Shown here piece after piece: positions 2,563 through 22,795 of a stretch of 24,032 nucleotides of DNA. The notes beneath the pieces were generated by a model that searched no databases, had not been told where the DNA came from, and saw nothing but the letters and a program-made list of their open reading frames with translations. The translations under genes were made by a program, and so were the position numbers. The DNA is from a virus (lineage: Duplodnaviria > Heunggongvirae > Uroviricota > Caudoviricetes): positions 1 to 24,032 of IMG/VR virus record IMGVR_UViG_3300035208_002853; one strand, 5' to 3'. Numbering within the stretch: position 1 is the stretch's first letter; each line of letters opens with the position of its first letter.

Positions 2563-4271
2563 ATGCTTCTGTCGCTAAAGTTCTAGACGACGAAACTATG
2601 GATGCAGCCGGGAGGTTGTACGAAGAAACTTATAATTCGTTTTATCTTTTTGTGGAGAAAATTTTTTCTTTGGCTATTAAGGAGAAATATGGTAAATATG
2701 TGGGCGGAGAATATATAAAAAGAAGTTGCGATTTTTTACAAAATAATAAGAGAACGATGTATTGTGGCCCCAGATTGCATTACAAAAGCTTGAGATTTTA
2801 TTCTTACATTGCTTGGTTAATTTGGAAAAATAAAAAAGATAAAAAAAATCTTGACATTGCATATATTTCATATAATCAGGATTTGTCTGGGGCACACGTA
2901 GGAAAACTTAAAGAATTAATAAGTAACTCTTTTTTCTTTGCAGAAGGGCTATATGATGAGTACTCCACGGCCACATCAAAAGCCGAATATAGATGGAGAG
3001 ACGCTAATGAAAGATCGCTGTCGAAGGCTCCCCATATTAGTATTAATTGTTATAGTATTTTGGGAGCTTTGAGAGGTCTGCATCCTACTCATATCCTCGT
3101 AGATGATTTTTATACGGATGAAGATAGGCAAAATGTGGTTTCTGTAGAGCCAGAAATCATCAAAAAGATAAATAGATTGTTTAGAAAAGTTGTGCTTCCT
3201 ATGCCATTGCCTGGTATCGGAGAACTTCATCTAATCGGAACTCCTCAGTCTTACGCCGATCTTTGGTATCAAAAGGAATTTTATAAAACAAGCGAAGATG
3301 ATGAAGAGTCTGTAAGATTTAACGTAAGATTAGAACCTGCGATTACTTCATATGACTGGGAAACTAGGACTTTTAGATCCGGAGAAGAAAAGAAGGCTCT
3401 TTGGCCCGAAATGTTTTCTTTAAAGTATTTGGAAGAGCAGGGAACCATAATGGCTCCTCAAGAGTGGGCCCAGGAATTTTTAGTGTGTCCGAGGTCAATT
3501 TCGGATTCATTCTTTGAAGAAGATAGAATCGATGAGAGTATCCGATTGGGAAAGGAAAGTTTGTTGGTTAACTACGCAGACCCAGCAAGATATAATACCT
3601 TCAATCCTGACGATTGGTTTGGTTATAAAATATATGGTGCGTATGATCCTGCCAAATCCCGAGACCCAGCACATTTTACAGTTTTTGCGTATAATAATGG
3701 AGTTTTAACACAATTAGTAAGTAAATTTATGGATAAGTGGGACTACAGCTATACTACACCAAGCAAGCCATCGCAGTTTAAATATATACGAGATGCAGTA
3801 GAGCATTTTAATATTCAAAGGATATGGGGCGACAACACTAATTCGGTATTAACATCTGCGATTGAACAAGGGGAAATTCCTGGATTAACTGAGGTTAAGA
3901 TTACTCATAGCTTAAAAGGAAAATTAGCTATCTCTTTACAGAAACACTTGGGAAAACCAAGTTTACTGTTGTTGGACGACGACAGGCAAAAAAGAGGATT
4001 TCTTGCAATTCAGAATAACGGATTAAAGGCAATCCATAGTAAAGACGGGCATGGCGAGCCCCTCACGTCGAGTGGTCTGGTTACGGTCAATGTCTTAGAC
4101 GCCGGAAACGGGGACAACGTAAGACGAATAAAAATAAAAACAGACAGGGATAAAATCCCCAAGTACTATCGTGGATACTTCCTGTCGCGCGGCGCGAATG
4201 GATCTCAAAGAACGGACCTCCCGTTTAATAATTTTGGGGCTAGGAGAAATCTGATGGGGAGATTAATATAA
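2490..4271 (+). CDS. terL: Terminase large subunit (start may be ATG 2598)
   Basis: Variant Walker A (GPRLHYKS), LRGLHP followed by Walker B (HILVDD), coupling motif IGTPQ, WPEMF...WAQEF, and a RuvC-like nuclease start (YGAYDPAKSRDPAHF). Confidence 0.9.
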   Translation: MRYKYIDEGKQICQKDDERRGLDLDASVAKVLDDETMDAAGRLYEETYNSFYLFVEKIFSLAIKEKYGKYVGGEYIKRSCDFLQNNKRTMYCGPRLHYKSLRFYSYIAWLIWKNKKDKKNLDIAYISYNQDLSGAHVGKLKELISNSFFFAEGLYDEYSTATSKAEYRWRDANERSLSKAPHISINCYSILGALRGLHPTHILVDDFYTDEDRQNVVSVEPEIIKKINRLFRKVVLPMPLPGIGELHLIGTPQSYADLWYQKEFYKTSEDDEESVRFNVRLEPAITSYDWETRTFRSGEEKKALWPEMFSLKYLEEQGTIMAPQEWAQEFLVCPRSISDSFFEEDRIDESIRLGKESLLVNYADPARYNTFNPDDWFGYKIYGAYDPAKSRDPAHFTVFAYNNGVLTQLVSKFMDKWDYSYTTPSKPSQFKYIRDAVEHFNIQRIWGDNTNSVLTSAIEQGEIPGLTEVKITHSLKGKLAISLQKHLGKPSLLLLDDDRQKRGFLAIQNNGLKAIHSKDGHGEPLTSSGLVTVNVLDAGNGDNVRRIKIKTDRDKIPKYYRGYFLSRGANGSQRTDLPFNNFGARRNLMGRLI

Positions 4272-14194: not shown

Positions 14195-15235
14195 CTAATT
14201 ATGGTGCGCGGAAAGGGGAATTGTGCGAGTTCCCCGCCAAGTTACTTTTGTTAATATATTTAGGTCTTCTGACTTCGCAATTTTAGTAATCCGTTTTCCT
14301 GTTCTAACACTGTGTAGGGAAATTCTACCCTTATAACTTCCACCAATATAGGTTAATTTCCACTTAGGATGCCGAACCAAGGTTCCTCTGCTAAATCCCA
14401 TTGATCGCGTCCCGCCTTGGGGTCTTCTAGTCCCTCCTTTTGTGAATTGAAACATATGTAATTGTCTTCTATTTAACACTATAGGTGTCCAATAGTTTAA
14501 ATCTTTTGTGGTAGGTTGGCCTGCTCCGCAGATACTAGCAGCCATAACCCAAGCATCCACTGCATGAGATTCGAACACCTTCCTGGATTTAACGGAAGTT
14601 TTCTTCAGTCGGTACGTATCGCGGAGCATCTTAGTGTCGTAACCTCTAAATAATTCTAGCTTCAGCCGCATATCCCGAATTGTTTGGTAGAACCACGCTT
14701 TTCCCACTTCTAAAGGCGAGAAATTCACATTGAACTTTCGAGCCCCTTTCCTGGTCTTAGCCGCTATATCTTCCACGCAAACATCTGTGATAGGTAACAC
14801 CCTCTTTATCTGTTTTAGTATTCGTACCTTGGAATTCCATCTAGCTAGGGTCGAAGGCGGCAACCACTTTTTATTTCTATTTCGGTTAAATCTGGCGGGT
14901 CTTCTCCAACAGTTTCTATGCCTCCTAGATTTTCGTAGATTACGGCGTCTCTCGACCGCGCCCTTAACGTGAATGGGCTCTTCCTGCATACCATTGAGTA
15001 CCGTCTTATGTTGCCCTACCACGCTCCACCCGGTCCACTTTGATCCAGGGTCAATACCAACTACTAACTTCTGGTTATCGGGTACGACCTCTTTGTGTAA
15101 TATAATACAGAATATTCCTAATTTATTCCAGTAGGCGGATGCCTTTCCGTTATCGAGCAGTTTCCTCGCGTGTGCCGGTGATGTAGGCATTAACGGAACC
15201 ATTCTTGAATCTAATACGGGTATTTGTTGCGACAT
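14195..15235 (-). CDS. isrB: IsrB OMEGA RNA-guided nickase (IS200/IS605 family; RuvC only, no HNH)
   Basis: N-terminal PLMP (VPLMPTSPAHARKLL), RuvC-I GIDPG, Arg-rich bridge helix RRRNLRKSRR, RuvC-II VEDI and RuvC-III SHAVDA. At 346 aa with no HNH insert, it is IsrB rather than IscB. Confidence 0.88.
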   Translation of the reverse strand: MSQQIPVLDSRMVPLMPTSPAHARKLLDNGKASAYWNKLGIFCIILHKEVVPDNQKLVVGIDPGSKWTGWSVVGQHKTVLNGMQEEPIHVKGAVERRRNLRKSRRHRNCWRRPARFNRNRNKKWLPPSTLARWNSKVRILKQIKRVLPITDVCVEDIAAKTRKGARKFNVNFSPLEVGKAWFYQTIRDMRLKLELFRGYDTKMLRDTYRLKKTSVKSRKVFESHAVDAWVMAASICGAGQPTTKDLNYWTPIVLNRRQLHMFQFTKGGTRRPQGGTRSMGFSRGTLVRHPKWKLTYIGGSYKGRISLHSVRTGKRITKIAKSEDLNILTKVTWRGTRTIPLSAHHN

Positions 15236-15489: not shown

Positions 15490-18400
15490 TTATTCTCCAT
15501 TCCAAAACGTACCCTTTGCGGTCGCATTCCACTTTCCTCTAATAATCGATCCATACATAGGCAACAATCCTCCGCGGCTCATCATGGCTCCGTAGGTTAT
15601 CTGACCTACATTATCCACGCATTCTATTGAGGAGAATGCGTTTCCAGCCTTGCTGGTCCCATAACTTATATTTGTTATCAAGAACTCTTTGGCCCCTAGT
15701 GTATCGAATCCACCTTCCAATCCTCTCAGTACATTCTTAGACATTTCATCTTCTACATTACCCATCCATAGTATTTGTAACTTTCCCTCTCTAACTTCTA
15801 TATGGCCTCTGTTCATGTAATAGGGATTTAAACAAAACACCAAGGGATTCTTTTGTTCTCCCTTAACTATCGTGTCCACAATCTCTTTATGTCTCCTCGC
15901 AACTACCGCAGACAAATTTAATGTAACTCTCGACGTGCCGTCCTCAAAATTCAAAACATACGAAGTGTTCCCATTACTACTAAACGCCTTATGATCATAA
16001 ACCCATCCAACAGACAATATTGCTTTGTTTTCTACGGACTCAGACTTTAAGTAGTTTAAAGGCTTCCTATGTAAATCATATTGAGTTTTTGGCAGTTCAT
16101 CATACGATCTAGGCCAGGGCAAGGACTTTCTGAGCCTAAACATCTTTTCCTCCTCAGACCAGTCGTCGCTTGTATTCGGTTCTGTAGACCACCTCCACAG
16201 CGTATTCCTAGTGAGTTCCTTTCCCCCTAATAATTGTTTGCGATTCTTCTCTACTGAATCTAAATAACCGACCTCTACGAGCGTTTGGTAAACATTCTTT
16301 TTAATTTTCTTTATCTTATCAAAGTCATCTCCAGCCGCCAAGACCTTTTTGATTTCTTCAGGTCCGATTCCTTTGACTTTGTTTAATCCTAAGTAAATAA
16401 TATTTTTGTCTTTATTGAACGTAGTTAATTCTGATGGAGATTCTACGCTTGGAGGTTTGATTTCTACTCCAGAATCCATCGCTTCTTTTACAAAGGATAA
16501 AGACTGAGTTTCATCGGATTCTACGTTAATTAGAGAGGCATAGAAAGCTAGGGGATAATATAATTTTAACCATGCTGTCCAGTATCCTAGCATAGAATAT
16601 TCAATAGAATGTGCTTCGTTGAAACTATAGCGTCCAAATTCAAGAATTTTGTTGAATAAATTATCAAATTGTGGTTTTGTGAAGCCATTTGATAACGCGC
16701 CCCGGAGCATTTTATCTTCACTTTCTTTAAGCGCTTCTCGACCCTTTGACTTTGCCACCAGCTTCATTTCCCGCTCACTTTCCACCAAAGAGAAATTTCC
16801 AATTTGATGGTAGATTTGCATAATCTGTTCTTGATAACAAATAATTCCATAGGTGTCCTTCGTGATCGACTCAAGTGTTGGATGATCGTAGTTCCACTCT
16901 TTTCCTCCCTTTCGATCTACATAATCAAATGACATCCCAGAGTTAAGAGGTCCTGGACGACACAAAGCATTCACGGCTACTAAGTCATTAAACTTGTCGG
17001 GATTTAGCTTCCTCAAATAGTCTGTCACTAATTGAGAACCAAATTGGAATATTCCAGCGGTTTTACTTGACTTAAGAAGTTCAAATATTTTAGGATCAGC
17101 ATAATCCTCTGGTAAAACATCCCATTCTAATCCAGAGGATTTTAACGCTCCGTCGATGACATCTAGGACGGAGATTCCTAGGACATCGAACTTGATTATA
17201 CCCAAACTTTCCAACATATCCTTTTCAAAACTTGCGGCGAGGCAATTTTTGATATCTCCTTTGTCATATATTTCTGTTGGGATAGTGCTTTCTAGATCCT
17301 TACAAATTACTACTCCTGCGGCATGAAGTCCTACGTGTCTAATTTTGCCTTTGAGTTTTATAGATGCATCTATTACTTGGGGGTACTTTTTCGCGAACTC
17401 TGCGGCGGTTTCTGAAGTAAGAATTATATCTTCGATTTTAAGGTTCTCTGCGGTCTTAGTGGAGAGTTCTTTGTTGAATTTATTTACCTCGGAAAGGGGA
17501 ACGTCATAAATTCTGGCTACATCCTTAATTGCGGATTTATCAGACCACTCGTTAAACGTCATAATATAGGACACGTTGGTTGGTCCATATTTGAGCCTGA
17601 GACTTCCAATTATACTTCCCCTTTTCTCGGCGCTGAAATCCATATCAATATCAGGAGTCCGTGTAGGTGAAAGGAATCTCTCCCATAAAGTATTAAATCT
17701 TAGTGGATCGACTCGTGTAATTTTTAATAAATATGCAAGTAGAGAACCGCCAACCGATCCTCTTCCTGGACCCCTTGGAATATTATGGGAATCTGCGTAG
17801 TCTGTCATATGCATAACTTTATCAAAATAATTAAAAAATTTTCTAGATGTAAGGAGATCTATTTCTTTTGTTATTCTTTCGTTTACTATTTGTGGATCAT
17901 ATCCGTTCTTTTTGGTATAACCTTCAACATCTATTCTATCTAAAATCTTTTGTCGGGCTTTCTCTTCATTTCCAGGCAAAGTATCCCCTAGATTTGACGG
18001 TAATTCAAAAGTGCATTTGCTAGCTACCTCTAAAGTATTAGCAAATAACTCTTCTCTTATGGGGTATATTTTTGGGTGATTCGATTTCAACAAGGACTCT
18101 ATTTGGTCGCAAGTTAAATTACAAAATGTGTCATCAGAGAACCCAATTTTATCTGTAATCTTTTTTCTCCATTCGTTCGCTTTTACGAGATCGTGATAAT
18201 GTTTATCCTCTGGAGAGTTGTAGTGGGAGTCGGTAGTGATTATTGGTTTAATATTATACTTTCTTGCTATATTAATTATATATTCATTAAATCTTATTTG
18301 TTCCTCCATTCGATTCGGCATTAGTTCCATATAAAGATCTTCTCCGAACGCCGCTTGAAGTTTTTGTATTATAGGCTCAGGATCATCTCCTCTTTTCCAT

Positions 18401-19476
18401 CTTTGGGCTACCGTTCCACTAATACATGCGGTGCTACAAATTAAACCTTCTGAATGCTTACAAACTTCGTCTAGAGGAATCTTTTGGAATACTTTATTGA
18501 AAACTTTATGGACATGTTCTTTTGCAATCGTATGTAATTTTAGTAGATTCTTATATCCAATCTCGTTTTTAACAAGAAGAACGAGATGACTTTGTTTTTT
18601 CTCAGATTCCTCTATATAGGCTTCTAGTCCAATAATGGGTTTAATTCCTTTTTTCTTCAGGGCATTTTGAAAGTAAGGGAGACCGGAAAGAGATCCGTGA
18701 TCTGTTATGGCACACGCTTTGAAGCCTTTCTGCGACAAATCTTCTGCTAATTCATCTTCTGTACGGAAAACATCTCCCACAGATCCGTGTTCAGTGTGTA
18801 CGTGCAAAGGCGCATATCTTTGCATTCCCAACGGAAAAGGTTTGGTTGACTGAGGTCCATTCGGAATTGGAGATCTCAGAGGACTTGGAAGGGGATCGGT
18901 TATTGATTGTTCTGCTGGAGCTTCAATACGTGTCGATCCATCTTCAAGAAAAAAGTTTACACGCTCGAAGGATTTCACGTAATCCTCAATTTTTACAGCT
19001 CCGCGCAGGCAGTAAGACGGATGATATAATCCGACAAACCTTCTGCCGCTATCGTCTTTTAGGGTTTGTCCAATCGCTTCCGAGATTTTTTTGGCAGGGA
19101 AGAAGAAGTTTAGAGCGGTAGCTCCGAGGCACACGATGAGTTCTGGATTTAGCAATTCTAACTGTTGCTCCAGCCAGGGCTTGCACGCGGCGATCTCTTC
19201 TGACGTTGGTTTTCTGTTTTCTGGCGGGCGGCATTTTAAAATATTGAGAATGCAAAAATCTTTAATCCCATTTTCCGATATGCAGCGATCCAGTAACATT
19301 CCAGAGCGGCCCACAAATGGCTTCCCTGCGGCGTCTTCGGCCTCACCCGGAGCTTCCCCCAAAATTACTATTTTCGGAGTCTGCGAACCGCGTCCGACGA
19401 CAACGTTTTTTCTTGATTCGCAGAGTCCACATTTTTTACACGATTTGATTTCTTGAGATAGAATTTTTAGATCCAA
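15490..19476 (-). CDS. dnaE: Fusion of family-4 uracil-DNA glycosylase and DNA polymerase III alpha (family C, DnaE-like)
   Basis: Residues 1-175 form the UDG: CxxCxLC, GEAPG, FVGRSG, KCRPPENR and YHPSY. A Pro-rich linker follows. PHP motifs are HVHT, ITDHG, GLEAY and TDSHY. The polymerase core has GPGRGSVGGSL, PDIDMDF, HAAGVVI, KFDVLG, YQEQIM and YSFNEAH, followed by HhH and OB regions. Confidence 0.95.
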   Translation of the reverse strand: MDLKILSQEIKSCKKCGLCESRKNVVVGRGSQTPKIVILGEAPGEAEDAAGKPFVGRSGMLLDRCISENGIKDFCILNILKCRPPENRKPTSEEIAACKPWLEQQLELLNPELIVCLGATALNFFFPAKKISEAIGQTLKDDSGRRFVGLYHPSYCLRGAVKIEDYVKSFERVNFFLEDGSTRIEAPAEQSITDPLPSPLRSPIPNGPQSTKPFPLGMQRYAPLHVHTEHGSVGDVFRTEDELAEDLSQKGFKACAITDHGSLSGLPYFQNALKKKGIKPIIGLEAYIEESEKKQSHLVLLVKNEIGYKNLLKLHTIAKEHVHKVFNKVFQKIPLDEVCKHSEGLICSTACISGTVAQRWKRGDDPEPIIQKLQAAFGEDLYMELMPNRMEEQIRFNEYIINIARKYNIKPIITTDSHYNSPEDKHYHDLVKANEWRKKITDKIGFSDDTFCNLTCDQIESLLKSNHPKIYPIREELFANTLEVASKCTFELPSNLGDTLPGNEEKARQKILDRIDVEGYTKKNGYDPQIVNERITKEIDLLTSRKFFNYFDKVMHMTDYADSHNIPRGPGRGSVGGSLLAYLLKITRVDPLRFNTLWERFLSPTRTPDIDMDFSAEKRGSIIGSLRLKYGPTNVSYIMTFNEWSDKSAIKDVARIYDVPLSEVNKFNKELSTKTAENLKIEDIILTSETAAEFAKKYPQVIDASIKLKGKIRHVGLHAAGVVICKDLESTIPTEIYDKGDIKNCLAASFEKDMLESLGIIKFDVLGISVLDVIDGALKSSGLEWDVLPEDYADPKIFELLKSSKTAGIFQFGSQLVTDYLRKLNPDKFNDLVAVNALCRPGPLNSGMSFDYVDRKGGKEWNYDHPTLESITKDTYGIICYQEQIMQIYHQIGNFSLVESEREMKLVAKSKGREALKESEDKMLRGALSNGFTKPQFDNLFNKILEFGRYSFNEAHSIEYSMLGYWTAWLKLYYPLAFYASLINVESDETQSLSFVKEAMDSGVEIKPPSVESPSELTTFNKDKNIIYLGLNKVKGIGPEEIKKVLAAGDDFDKIKKIKKNVYQTLVEVGYLDSVEKNRKQLLGGKELTRNTLWRWSTEPNTSDDWSEEEKMFRLRKSLPWPRSYDELPKTQYDLHRKPLNYLKSESVENKAILSVGWVYDHKAFSSNGNTSYVLNFEDGTSRVTLNLSAVVARRHKEIVDTIVKGEQKNPLVFCLNPYYMNRGHIEVREGKLQILWMGNVEDEMSKNVLRGLEGGFDTLGAKEFLITNISYGTSKAGNAFSSIECVDNVGQITYGAMMSRGGLLPMYGSIIRGKWNATAKGTFWNGE

Positions 19477-19489
19477 CTTAAATCATCAC

Positions 19490-20275
19490 CTAAATAATTT
19501 TTCCTTCGCTTTCACTAAATCGGTTGCAATTATCGTTAAAACATTCTAGAGAATATGTTTCTTTTAATTCTTTGGGCCACCCCATTTTATTCCATTTGGA
19601 TAATAATTTGGTTGAATCCGTTTCCCCATTGCGCCTCATTTCAGCCCCATTATGTCCTATATGTCCAACACAAAGATGTATTAAACTTTGATCGCCACAG
19701 ACTCTACAAGGACCAAAGAATTCATAGGCCGCTTTCCAAAGTTTTATTTGGCGTTTTTGAGACAAAGATATCTCCGACTTTGATAAATTAAAATACCCGC
19801 GCCGCTTCACTCCGCAATTGCAATTGTAATCCAAAACCCGCAATCTCCTTCTAATTTCGGTTTCTTCGGGCCAAACCGTTTTATTCCAATATTGAATCAT
19901 CCCGTAAACGTAGTTTTCCCCATAAACTTCTCTGTCGTGTTTAGAGTCATTGTTTATGTGGTCGAAGGTTAAATACTTTTTGTTTGATTCTCCGCACATA
20001 ACACATTCATAACCCAATATATCGAATAGCTTATTTCTTAGCTTTTCGTTGTATTTTCTTTGATACTCAATTATTGATTTATGATTTTGGGATCTATATT
20101 CTTCTTCTTTTCCCCTGGTCTTGTCATAGTTTATCCATCGATTTATTGTCCCAACAGCGCAATTGCATTCTATCGCTATTTGTCTCTGGCTTTTTCCTAG
20201 TCGCATTTGTTTGTCCAACCAATCTTTATTTTTATATGGTTTTGCTCCGCTAAGTAACAAATAAAGTCCTCCCAA
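19490..20275 (-). CDS. Tandem double-HNH endonuclease, copy 3, with N-terminal HTH
   Basis: HTH (SQRQIAIECNCAVGTINRWI), then CVMCG..LTFDHINND..LDYNCNC and GPCRVCG..VGHIGHNG..LECFNDNC. Confidence 0.85.
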   Translation of the reverse strand: MGGLYLLLSGAKPYKNKDWLDKQMRLGKSQRQIAIECNCAVGTINRWINYDKTRGKEEEYRSQNHKSIIEYQRKYNEKLRNKLFDILGYECVMCGESNKKYLTFDHINNDSKHDREVYGENYVYGMIQYWNKTVWPEETEIRRRLRVLDYNCNCGVKRRGYFNLSKSEISLSQKRQIKLWKAAYEFFGPCRVCGDQSLIHLCVGHIGHNGAEMRRNGETDSTKLLSKWNKMGWPKELKETYSLECFNDNCNRFSESEGKII

Positions 20276-20290
20276 AAAAGTTATAGCTAG

Positions 20291-22300
20291 TTAAATAGAA
20301 TTAATCCGTTCTTCCGCCATTTTACAATAATCTGCGTTCAGATCTATCCCCACGAAATCCCGGCCCAACTTCTTGGAAACCACGCCTACAGTCCCACTTC
20401 CCATAAATGGATCTAATATCAAGCAAGGTTCAGGATCTCCCCAGGCGCAGTCCAGAATACATGAGCAGGTCTGTTGCCATCCTACGGTTTTAGATTCTGC
20501 GGGAGATAGCATAGTTCCACTAGCTTGAGTCCTTCCAAATTCTCCCATTTGCGCCATTCTATCTGTCTTTCGAATAACCATTGGTTTCTTAAGAAGAATT
20601 CTCTTGTATGGAGCATTACATGCGGGACAGCAACCTTTTTCGGAAGTGGACGATTTGATAGGATTTAGAAGTAATTCTTCACAAAATGTCGCAAAATGCG
20701 CCGACTTAAAGGGCTTCGTTACAAGGGTCCAAACCGAACGGAGGTTGCGCTTACTGGTACAATATTGACTGAGACGCCCACGAGACGTTTGTCCATTTGG
20801 CGTATTTTCTCTTGCAGAGCCAGATAGTTTGCCCGTCGTGTAATTCCCTGATTTTCCCGGTCTAGTGTCTTCTGGATTTTTGCGTCCTTCCTTCACCGCC
20901 TCTCCATCATAAAAATACTTCTTACTTTTCGTGAACATAAACAAGTATTCATGACTTTTTGATGGGCGATCAACTACCGACTCAGGCATTGAATTCCCCA
21001 CATATAATCCCAGGTTCTCAATGAGTGCTTCTATTTTATTTTGATCAATTCCAATTTCTATGCCAGCATTATAGATCTGAGAAGTCAGTTCTTTTTGTCC
21101 ACTCACTCCCTTGGCCCAGATAATGTCTGACCGGAGCCACCAGCCGTCGTCTCTAAGAGCGAAAGCTACGAGCCAGGGAATTCCGATGAGATCTTTGGGT
21201 TTAATAGATATATTTATATAGTTTGTGGTATTATATGGCTGAATATATGGAAGGTTCAACCATGACGAAACAAGCGAATAGTATCTGGAAATGCATCGAA
21301 TGTGGTCGCACAGTTCCTCGAAGGACGAAAAGGTGTCCCGAGTGTCACAAGGCGTTTCTAAAGATCCGACCGACTTACGTTCGAACTCCCGAGCACAAAC
21401 GGCTAATGAGCGAAGTAACGACAGGAAAACCAAAAGCGTATCCTTCGGCTTCAACTCGCCCAGAAGTGGCGGAACGTATTCGTTTGGCTTGGACTCCTGA
21501 AATGAAAGAATCTGCTCGATTGCGGGGATTAGCGTTTGCGCTCGATCCAAACTGGCGTTTAATGATTGCCGAATCTGTTTCCGGAGAGAAAAATCCTCGA
21601 TGGGAAGATGGTCGGGCAGTTTTACCTTATTCACCAGGTTTTGCTGGCAAAGTAAGGCAACTTGTTCATGAGCGAGACGGAGAGTGTTGTCAGAAATGTG
21701 GTTCCACCAAAAATTTATGCGTTCACCACATGGACTTTCAGAAAAATGATCACGATCTGGGAAACTTGGTTCTCCTCTGTCGGAAGTGTCACACGGGAAC
21801 GCATTTAGAGCATAAGAACGGTCATGTTTAGACCTCCCGTTTGTTCTGTTAACTCCGCCCGTGTTTTTATGATTGCTATACCCCGCGCCGCAATAAGAAT
21901 CTCCTAAATTTAAAAATAGGATTCCGTCGTCTCTCAGAGTCCTTTTTACCTCTCTAAATACTTCTACGAGATTAGTCACGTATTCGTCTGGCGTAGCCTC
22001 TAATCCGAGTTGAAAATCCTCATATGTGGCTCCACACTTAGAACATGTTGGGGATGGGAACTCGGACGGATAACTATTTGTTGTGTTTTTAGCATTGGGT
22101 CCAGATCCACCTCTCCCGTTCCTCGCTGGAATTGTATCGTGAACGCAATCTTGCGATCCTCCGATCCATTTTCCGGTATTGTACGATCTTAAGCCAAAAA
22201 ATGGCGGACTCGTTATGCAACATTGAAACACTTTGTCTGGAAAAGTCTTTAAAACGTCCAAAGAATTGCCACAATAAATTTTATTTCGCTCCATACTCAT
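20291..22300 (-). CDS. Beta-class N4-C/N6-A DNA methyltransferase carrying a ~205-codon in-frame insertion
   Basis: Motif IV (CITSPPF) is N-terminal and motif I (ILDPFMGSGT) C-terminal. Family segments are LNLGDSY, KPKDLIGIPW, SDIIWAK, MPESVVDRP..SHEY, RNLRSVW and HFATF. Confidence 0.92.
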   Translation of the reverse strand: MSMERNKIYCGNSLDVLKTFPDKVFQCCITSPPFFGLRSYNTGKWIGGSQDCVHDTIPARNGRGGSGPNAKNTTNSYPSEFPSPTCSKCGATYEDFQLGLEATPDEYVTNLVEVFREVKRTLRDDGILFLNLGDSYCGAGYSNHKNTGGVNRTNGRSKHDRSYALNAFPCDTSDRGEPSFPDRDHFSESPCGERINFWWNHISDNTLRLAHEQVALLCQQNLVNKVKLPDHLPIEDFSLRKQIRQSLNASLDRAQTLIPAIEQILSFQESKPNEYVPPLLGELKPKDTLLVFLSLLRSLAVCAREFERKSVGSLETPCDTRDTFSSFEELCDHIRCISRYYSLVSSWLNLPYIQPYNTTNYINISIKPKDLIGIPWLVAFALRDDGWWLRSDIIWAKGVSGQKELTSQIYNAGIEIGIDQNKIEALIENLGLYVGNSMPESVVDRPSKSHEYLFMFTKSKKYFYDGEAVKEGRKNPEDTRPGKSGNYTTGKLSGSARENTPNGQTSRGRLSQYCTSKRNLRSVWTLVTKPFKSAHFATFCEELLLNPIKSSTSEKGCCPACNAPYKRILLKKPMVIRKTDRMAQMGEFGRTQASGTMLSPAESKTVGWQQTCSCILDCAWGDPEPCLILDPFMGSGTVGVVSKKLGRDFVGIDLNADYCKMAEERINSI
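21207..21223 (+). promoter_or_regulatory. TATA promoter for the nested HNH gene, embedded in the methyltransferase coding sequence
   Basis: GATATATTTATATAGTT matches the genome's promoter consensus. A GGAAGG SD-like sequence at 21249-21254 precedes ATG 21262. Confidence 0.6.
21262..21831 (+). CDS. HNH endonuclease nested antisense inside the methyltransferase gene (track start 21223; likely start 21262)
   Basis: N-terminal Zn ribbon (CIECG..CPEC), NUMOD3-like SGEKNPRWEDG, and HNH core RDGECCQKCG..LCVHHMD..NLVLLCRKCHTGTH. Confidence 0.92.
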   Translation: MTKQANSIWKCIECGRTVPRRTKRCPECHKAFLKIRPTYVRTPEHKRLMSEVTTGKPKAYPSASTRPEVAERIRLAWTPEMKESARLRGLAFALDPNWRLMIAESVSGEKNPRWEDGRAVLPYSPGFAGKVRQLVHERDGECCQKCGSTKNLCVHHMDFQKNDHDLGNLVLLCRKCHTGTHLEHKNGHV

Positions 22301-22795
22301 CTCTTCTCCAAATTTAGCCTTTTAGCTTTATGATATACAGAATGGTCCTTTCTCCCTAGATGTTCCCCTATCTCTCCCGCTGTCATTGTGAGATAATTAT
22401 TTTTCAAATAATCTATATCTTCAGGAGACCAACTAGAGTTTCTTTTTCTCCGAAGTCCTAAACTACTTGCCTTTAGTATTATTCCTTCCTTTTTCCTCCC
22501 CAGCACAAAACTCATTTCTTCCCAAGAGGTCGTAGCGTAACTTCTTTTAAGATATTCTATATCTTCCGAACTAAAATGTTTTAAATACTCTAAATTAGTT
22601 CCATTCAGTCCCAATTCATCAATTCTTTTTTCAATTTGAGATTCCGATCGGCCCCAGAGTTTATTTTGAATAGAGTTTCTTTTAACTCCTCTAACAGGGA
22701 TCTTTCCATAAAATTCTTTTAAGATATCGTCTTCTTCTGTCGTAAACTTGTCGGGTATAAAAATCTCTCCTAATATTCGGTCTTTCAGACCTCAT
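22297..22795 (-). CDS. Protein with three Myb/homeodomain-like HTH repeats; the 5' end needs a +1 frameshift or an ATA start (22758)
   Basis: Repeats are FTTEEDDILKEFY..LWGRS, FSSEDIEYLKRSY..LGRK and WSPEDIDYLKNNY..LGRK. The frame is open well upstream of the track's TTG at 22614 but contains no ATG. Confidence 0.65.

Follow-up and report, generated by a model that had tools for sequence, protein, structure and literature searches.

How can a complete nuclease gene lie antisense within an enzyme gene of a virus while the reading frame of that enzyme stays open across it? This question is raised by a 24,032-nucleotide stretch of a virus of the class Caudoviricetes (positions 1 to 24,032 of IMG/VR record IMGVR_UViG_3300035208_002853, hereafter the window), in which the gene of an HNH endonuclease is nested on the opposite strand of a DNA methyltransferase (MTase) gene. 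An initial annotation had proposed a homing element that invaded a variable loop of the MTase, needs no splicing and is kept open in the MTase frame by selection for dual coding. Both open reading frames (ORFs) are present as it described them (Table 1), and the MTase motifs that it named stand where it placed them. From a comparison with related loci, we consider it very likely that the window carries a homing-type HNH cassette that was inserted antisense into a loop of the MTase and that the MTase is translated through it. The host MTase thus probably needs no splicing.

Stop codon avoidance in the methyltransferase frame

A protein search yielded 42 relatives of the HNH protein, and their alignment was used to scan metagenome, genome and viral contigs, which gave 155 loci. 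All loci were compared by tblastn with the N-terminal part, the C-terminal part and the insert of the window MTase and with the HNH protein, and collapsing the HNH proteins at 95% identity left 65 non-redundant loci. Almost all full-length relatives of the HNH protein, with identities between 28% and 100%, are encoded antisense between the same two MTase parts. These parts share one frame with no intervening stop codon in 56 of the 65 loci. Two further loci (L024 and L076) have their sole stops far from the HNH gene, in the SPPY motif, and are counted among the read-through group of 58 loci. In the other seven (L044, L047, L049, L054, L089, L096 and L102) the MTase is split into two ORFs around the HNH gene. 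In the HNH tree, a branch with support 91/86 has the split loci on one side; they stand among read-through lineages, and their C-terminal MTase part has a conserved ATG and ribosome-binding site, unlike the window.

Each MTase codon spans positions 2 and 3 of one HNH codon and position 1 of the next, and a stop arises in the MTase frame when an HNH codon of the form NTT, NCT or NTC (a risk codon) precedes a codon starting with A. The hand count of the initial annotation proved exact: the window HNH gene has 36 risk codons among its 189 codons and none is followed by A, with 50 of the 189 codons starting with A. The remaining two antisense registers of the same gene contain 9 and 10 stops. When the order of these codons was randomised, the MTase register had 9.5 stops on average, and not one of 200,000 shuffles was stop-free. 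Across the 58 read-through loci, 1,390 of 10,467 HNH codons are risk codons and again none precedes an A-starting codon (background 25.3%), i.e., about 361 stops were expected and none was observed. The register is identical in all read-through loci and every cassette has a length divisible by three, with 0–16 stops in each of the other two registers. The split group serves as a natural control, because read-through is no longer needed there and stops appear at the neutral rate: of its 153 risk codons (among 1,325 HNH codons) 32 are followed by A, i.e., 32 stops against 33.3 expected. These counts support that selection has kept the MTase frame stop-free across the HNH gene and bear out the dual coding that had been suspected from the window sequence. 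The host frame constrains even the amino acid sequence of the nuclease, as phenylalanine never stands before an A-starting codon in the read-through group (0/85).

The wobble position of the HNH codons is the second codon position of the MTase and vice versa, so that the two frames compete directly. Differences between the cassettes of the window and of locus L009 fall on HNH codon positions 1, 2 and 3 with counts of 25/20/58, and an excess at the third position is found in every cassette pair with more than 60% identity. Where the HNH proteins are 84% identical the peptide in the MTase frame is 64% identical, and its similarity is undetectable below approximately 55% HNH identity. The accumulation of substitutions at HNH wobble positions indicates that the HNH protein is the selected product and that the MTase-frame peptide is a passenger kept only stop-free. 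The structure prediction agrees with the passenger role that the initial annotation had assigned to this peptide: in an AlphaFold2 model based on a 73-sequence alignment, the MTase core reaches a predicted local distance difference test (pLDDT) score above 90, while the insert (residues 141–365) is predicted at pLDDT 31–56, with a few long helices of low confidence.

Cassette boundaries, empty allele and mobility

Close homologues of ordinary length were found with the C-terminal part of the MTase, and most of the best 120 of 4,770 MTase homologues have the length expected without an insert. The closest MTase relative is P0044, a protein of 485 amino acids encoded on L164, a 129-kb contig of a related phage that shares with the window the adjacent gene for a fusion of uracil-DNA glycosylase (UDG) and DnaE polymerase. 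P0044 lacks the inserted segment and has a loop of 45 amino acids in its place, in line with the proposed invasion of a variable loop. The alignment with MTase homologues by which the initial annotation would have fixed the insert boundaries thus yielded an empty allele as well. Homology between the window and L164 in blastn (80%) ends at position 21206 and resumes at 21879, from which it follows that 672 bp in the window replace about 127 bp of L164. The insert therefore lies between the two MTase motifs named in the annotation, but it starts directly after GDSY rather than after GRSKH. Its other end is equally sharp, with the cassette beginning directly at the conserved KPKD codons. A sequence within the insert, ELKPKDTLL, resembles the flanking IKPKDL and was rejected as a coincidence; it is not at the boundary and is not conserved in locus L007.

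Outside the loop, the window MTase and its empty allele are 83.9% identical in amino acids, and their differences by codon position (72/39/163) show no decay of the occupied MTase. The reverse comparison, with a locus that has a divergent MTase (L009), shows likeness at positions 21116–21919 only (80% in blastn). The HNH proteins of the window and L009 are 84% identical and the MTase parts 43–47%; for L004 the corresponding values are 73% and 33–41%. HNH and MTase identities are weakly correlated among 1,326 pairs of read-through loci (Spearman 0.24), and MTase identity stays at about 0.46–0.58 over the entire range of HNH identity. The closest MTase relatives are without the cassette and the closest cassette resides in a distant MTase. 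This uncoupling of the two similarities, which supports the mobility proposed for the element, points to horizontal movement and fits a homing element rather than a co-evolving pair. On this footprint of mobility, the window HNH may functionally be a homing endonuclease.

The nuclease and its putative expression signals

The start of the HNH gene was chosen by homology as the ATG at position 21262. The encoded protein has a Cys4 zinc ribbon at its N-terminus and an HNH domain of the pattern CxxC...HH...N...CxxCH at its C-terminus, with a helical part between them; C143, C146, H155, H156, N168, C173 and C176 are invariant among 32 relatives. HNH families of PHROG match the nested ORF down to 1e-12. 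AlphaFold2 predicts the HNH protein alone with a mean pLDDT of 86.6 and with values of 90–97 over the motif, and the model aligns with the cores of GVE2 HNH, Cap5 and McrA, a likeness that is confined to the HNH core. A Foldseek search of the PDB with this model returned no match at E ≤ 0.001, just the generic HNH core. The best hit of a profile search against PDB sequences was the HNH domain of a group II intron maturase (8.7e-07), which says no more than HNH. By its predicted catalytic residues, zinc ligands and fold, the window protein appears to be an HNH endonuclease of family PF01844 (beta-beta-alpha-Me).

Upstream of the gene, a consensus scan identified TAGATA and TATTAT, spaced by 18 nucleotides and with an upstream TG, at positions 21205–21234, of which the extended -10 element occupies 21226–21234. 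A second element, TGnCTGAAT at 21236–21244, aligns with the -10 element of relatives. The Shine-Dalgarno (SD) sequence seen in the initial annotation is real (GGAAGG at 21249–21254, 7 nucleotides ahead of the ATG), but the supposed TATA box is more plausibly an extended -10 promoter element of bacterial type. Related cassettes have a TTGAC(A/T) box and an extended -10 element (TGnTAnAAT) at a fixed place ahead of the start codon. In many of them the spacing is just six bases, like in leaderless mRNAs; the sub-clade of the window has an SD sequence instead. Of 64 related cassettes, 40 contain a motif like the extended -10 element, as compared to 3.9 expected from shuffles and 6 on the opposite strand. 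A terminator scan of positions 20200–22700 found none. The HNH gene is thus probably transcribed from its own sigma-70-type promoter within the cassette and translated from its own SD sequence, as far as these sequence signals can be read.

The methyltransferase

The MTase ORF matches PF01555 with an E value of 1.3e-32. Motif IV lies N-terminal and motif I (FxGxG) C-terminal, both intact, which is the order of the Beta class (Table 1). The motif IV variant SPPF suggests N4-cytosine specificity, which we take from established knowledge of such motifs. The flanking motifs are at residues 130–136 (LNLGDSY) and 366–376 (IKPKDLIGIPW), with GRSKH at residues 155–159. The IKPKDLIGIPW stretch is a probable homology arm and a probable part of the nuclease target. 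The MTase start codon shares an ATGA with the stop codon of the gene upstream and has GGAG ahead of it, which makes the MTase gene part of a minus-strand operon.

The window MTase has no ATG from the cassette up to residue 438 (GTG and TTG starts were not checked). The segment from KPKDLIGIPW to DIIW is consequently unreachable by restart at an ATG, and the simplest route to it would be translation through the cassette.

Table 1 Features of the methyltransferase locus, with positions in the window
Feature	Position	Strand	Description
DNA methyltransferase (MTase) ORF	20291..22300	-	669 amino acids; beta-class N6/N4 family; open straight across the cassette
MTase motif I DPFMGSG	20393-20413	-	DPFMGSGT is residues 630-637; near C-terminus; intact
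MTase motif IKPKDLIGIPW	21173..21205	-	Conserved; abuts the cassette; nearly invariant columns in the 73-sequence alignment
Putative HNH expression signals	21205..21254	+	From consensus scan; presumed function
Mobile cassette	21207..21878	+	672 bp, 224 MTase codons; putative promoter and SD sequence, HNH ORF, 47-nucleotide tail
HNH endonuclease gene	21262..21831	+	189 amino acids; nested in MTase; open stretch begins at 21223
MTase motif LNLGDSY and first loop residues	21879..21913	-	Conserved; other cassette flank
MTase motif IV SPPF	22199-22210	-	Residues 31-34; near N-terminus; intact

Proposed mechanism and alternative explanations

We propose that a cassette of approximately 672 bp would have entered, in antisense orientation, a variable surface loop between GDSY and KPKDLIGIPW of a phage N6/N4 MTase, and that its own sigma-70-type promoter and SD sequence would drive the HNH gene. 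The MTase would be translated across the cassette, with the loop gaining about 200 amino acids of low conservation and probably loose structure. Selection would purge those HNH codon pairs that read as a stop on the other strand, because a stop would remove the catalytically needed C-terminal half of the MTase. In co-infections, the nuclease would presumably cut or nick phage alleles without the cassette at a specific site, and repair from the occupied allele would copy the cassette in, for which the two conserved motifs would provide the homology arms.

Some observations weigh against this proposal. Stop avoidance means that ribosomes must pass and says nothing on the activity of the fused protein. 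The split clade apparently shows that the enzyme family can live as two chains, for which a continuous chain is not strictly required. The match of the HNH protein to PF01844 scores 23.6 bits, which is barely above the cut-off of 21.4. The Rfam search for introns had no match at the gathering threshold or at E values up to 10, and returned chance-level hits to snoU13 and SpR19 only, but its models can miss divergent introns, and an unusual intron may have escaped it. Phage HNH genes often reside in group I introns, and an unrecognised self-splicing intron, or another RNA-excised element that carries an antisense homing-endonuclease gene, might be lost from the MTase mRNA before translation. 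We give this explanation a very slight chance, as excision needs no open host frame, yet the 58 read-through lineages are without a single stop, the split clade is neutral, and the cassette always keeps its register and a length in multiples of three. Nor is there an indication of protein splicing. The initial annotation had seen neither intein motifs nor obvious bulge-helix-bulge pairing, and no intein domain of Pfam was found in the window MTase by a search that detects the true intein of L004, located at another site. The insert finishes with NIS ahead of IKPKD and not with the HN followed by C, S or T that, along with an N-terminal C or S and a Hint fold, marks an intein. A frame that is open as a by-product of composition or chance has next to no probability in our view. 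Long antisense ORFs are common in GC-rich DNA, and GC-rich split loci are also stop-free in the codon-aligned register; the window cassette, however, has 47% GC, none of its shuffled versions was open, and the same register is stop-free in all 58 lineages, with the split clade as internal control.

It is also conceivable that the frame is open just to let ribosomes pass, by which polarity, Rho termination or a loss of coupling to the C-terminal half would be avoided. The inserted peptide would then be cut out afterwards, or the fusion would be without activity or relevance, and the arrangement would be tolerated without being functional. Methylases are frequently dispensable for phages (PMC11855218), two chains may suffice as in the split clade, and the insert is modelled at low confidence. 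On the other hand, the C-terminal part after the window cassette has no ATG or start signal, unlike in the split loci, the MTase flanks are under purifying selection, and no protease or intein signature was found, which leaves this possibility unlikely, with a small share of our confidence. Alternatively, the HNH and MTase proteins could be a cooperating pair, such as a restriction-modification-like system, an exclusion module or a means of antisense MTase regulation. The linkage is constant, the full-length family members that were found sit in this MTase loop, and antisense transcription could damp MTase expression. Yet HNH and MTase similarities are uncoupled, the nearest MTase relatives are without HNH, insert-free lengths prevail among the best MTase homologues, and the zinc ribbon together with the NUMOD3-type annotation of relatives is the architecture of homing enzymes; cooperation thus has only a slight chance. 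A restriction-modification pair in particular was considered and rejected: joint inheritance and diversification are not seen, as the similarities are uncoupled and most methylases of the family lack an HNH partner.

Comparison with known insertions

The homing-type cassette proposed here has precedents in part. In Aeromonas phage Aeh1, the free-standing homing endonuclease gene mobE is said to split nrdA. Both cases involve a homing-type nuclease gene that lies within an enzyme-encoding gene, with neither intron nor intein around it, and the seven split relatives of the cassette resemble mobE also in dividing their host gene. In contrast, the window and 57 other lineages read through the cassette and are not split, and their nuclease gene is on the opposite strand. 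Inteins and intron-encoded HNH enzymes (e.g., I-HmuI, and I-PfoP3I, PMC3428280) likewise target conserved motifs of phage genes for DNA metabolism, but no machinery for protein or RNA splicing was recognised in the window, and harm to the host would be avoided by the purging of stops and not by excision.

The closest likeness is to the ShiLan domain. Gosselin et al. 2023 (PMC9957025) described a stop-free insertion of 202 amino acids in mycobacteriophage methylases with intein-like mobility, and Arsenault, Gosselin and Gogarten 2025 (PMC11855218) found that the ShiLan insertion hides an HNH gene on the same strand, in a shifted frame. The insertion was without intron or intein features, a looping appendage was predicted, and the route of HNH translation was left open (PMC11855218). 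Like the window cassette, it adds about 200 amino acids to a phage methylase of PF01555 at a conserved position and is absent from close homologues. In both, the host frame is stop-free without an intein or intron signature and the HNH gene uses another reading frame. Both have a patchy distribution, with an insert that is less diverged than, and uncoupled from, the host methylase and is predicted as a low-confidence appendage. Splicing-free HNH insertions were thus already known (PMC9957025, PMC11855218), and the arrangement in the window is an opposite-strand variant of these hidden HNH insertions.

The differences concern strand, nuclease family, site and spread. The HNH gene is in a shifted frame of the same strand in ShiLan insertions and on the opposite strand here, with its own conserved promoter-like element. 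Phage Mantra gp64, which is of the ShiLan type, has an HNH_3 domain (PF13392) on the sense strand and an insert between ALKPS and FEPVVVARKP, whereas the window HNH belongs to PF01844 and the insertion lies between GDSY and KPKDLIGIPW in another subfamily of PF01555 methylases. No mycobacteriophage match was obtained by tblastn with the window HNH. Cassettes of the window type occur in uncultured phages linked to diverse bacteria (bins of relatives are labelled Planctomycetaceae, Thiobacillus and Dehalococcoidia) and have a much broader spread. The published papers do not include a quantification of stop avoidance or a split-gene control, and our literature search found no paper on an antisense or nested form.

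Variation among related loci

In the split clade (L044:1870-4112 and others), the N-terminal MTase part ends with a tail of the pattern ...LR.DLT.EE.AYVL.ELA.C..L followed by TGA, which overlaps the 3' end of the HNH gene. The C-terminal part has its own ATG and a conserved head, M.L.L.Q..IP.HL..YF.P, ahead of LKPKD. Tail and head may match each other and keep the two halves joined. The stops of L024 and L076, which are distant lineages, derive from an insertion of 6 nucleotides, TGATAG or TGGTAG, by which they come to lie precisely between SPPY and WGLRDY (L024:2670-2690 and L076:890-900, minus strand). The MTase frame of both is stop-free across the HNH gene despite these stops in motif IV, which could be a scar, a switch or a case of stop-codon recoding.

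Locus L004 encodes an MTase of 932 amino acids (L004:2085-4883, minus strand) that contains the antisense HNH cassette and, in addition, a true intein, which follows IIW, starts with C and ends with HN ahead of SKPNPMPES. Two distinct selfish elements thus share one gene, as in phage ShiLan. Matches of the HNH protein in tblastn were also found in Synechococcus phage S-EIVl (KJ410740.1, 54963–55532) and in Brucella phages (approximately 3497–3733), where the annotation reads large terminase subunit. They are candidates for additional nuclease genes that are nested in or fused to another gene.

Genomic context

With its 24 kb, the window makes up the beginning of a contig of more than 122 kb in a 6.2-Mb bin. 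The TATA box and bulge-helix-bulge pairing of which the initial annotation speaks imply an archaeal framing. This framing is not supported, because the bin has a bacterial 16S (1,600 bits to RF00177), the neighbouring replicase, a UDG-DnaE fusion, is of the bacterial, DnaE type, and the putative promoter is sigma-70-like. The fusion protein has 1,328 amino acids (15490–19476, minus strand; PHP, pol3 alpha, finger and HHH domains) and is adjoined by an RRXRR-family protein of 346 amino acids (14195–15235, minus strand).

Between the MTase and polymerase genes lies an ORF of 261 amino acids with helix-turn-helix and HNH-like motifs (19490–20275, minus strand). In L164 the two genes directly adjoin and a counterpart of the ORF is missing, and in locus L165 its slot is occupied by a gene for a DUF559/Vsr-type nuclease; the ORF looks like a second, free-standing mobile nuclease gene. 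L164 has an extra PF01555 methylase gene of 255 amino acids just upstream of the empty-allele MTase (L164:5232-5999), which is missing from the window.

Implications

Elements of this kind are undercounted, because gene callers report one of the two genes or shorten one: the HNH protein is on record with 141 amino acids, and in L004 and L007 the callers give only the part of the methylase on one side. Loops that tolerate passengers of 200 residues may be useful sites for protein engineering. The location on the opposite strand, together with an own putative promoter, would answer the question of the ShiLan authors on how a hidden HNH gene is expressed.

We lean towards the view, with some reserve, that antisense, self-promoted read-through cassettes are a distinct and widespread splicing-free lifestyle of selfish nucleases within an essential gene part, and that the full-length MTase is made with its passenger and is active. 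Such cassettes would be a third way for a homing endonuclease to live inside a conserved gene, besides introns or inteins and the splitting of genes. The 58 lineages with zero stops and their neutrally drifting sister clade provide an unusually clean natural experiment on dual-strand coding. If our interpretation is true, the host frame shapes the sequence of the nuclease that it carries, e.g., by forbidding phenylalanine before lysine, asparagine, threonine, isoleucine or methionine, and the split-gene clade would represent a one-time escape from this constraint.

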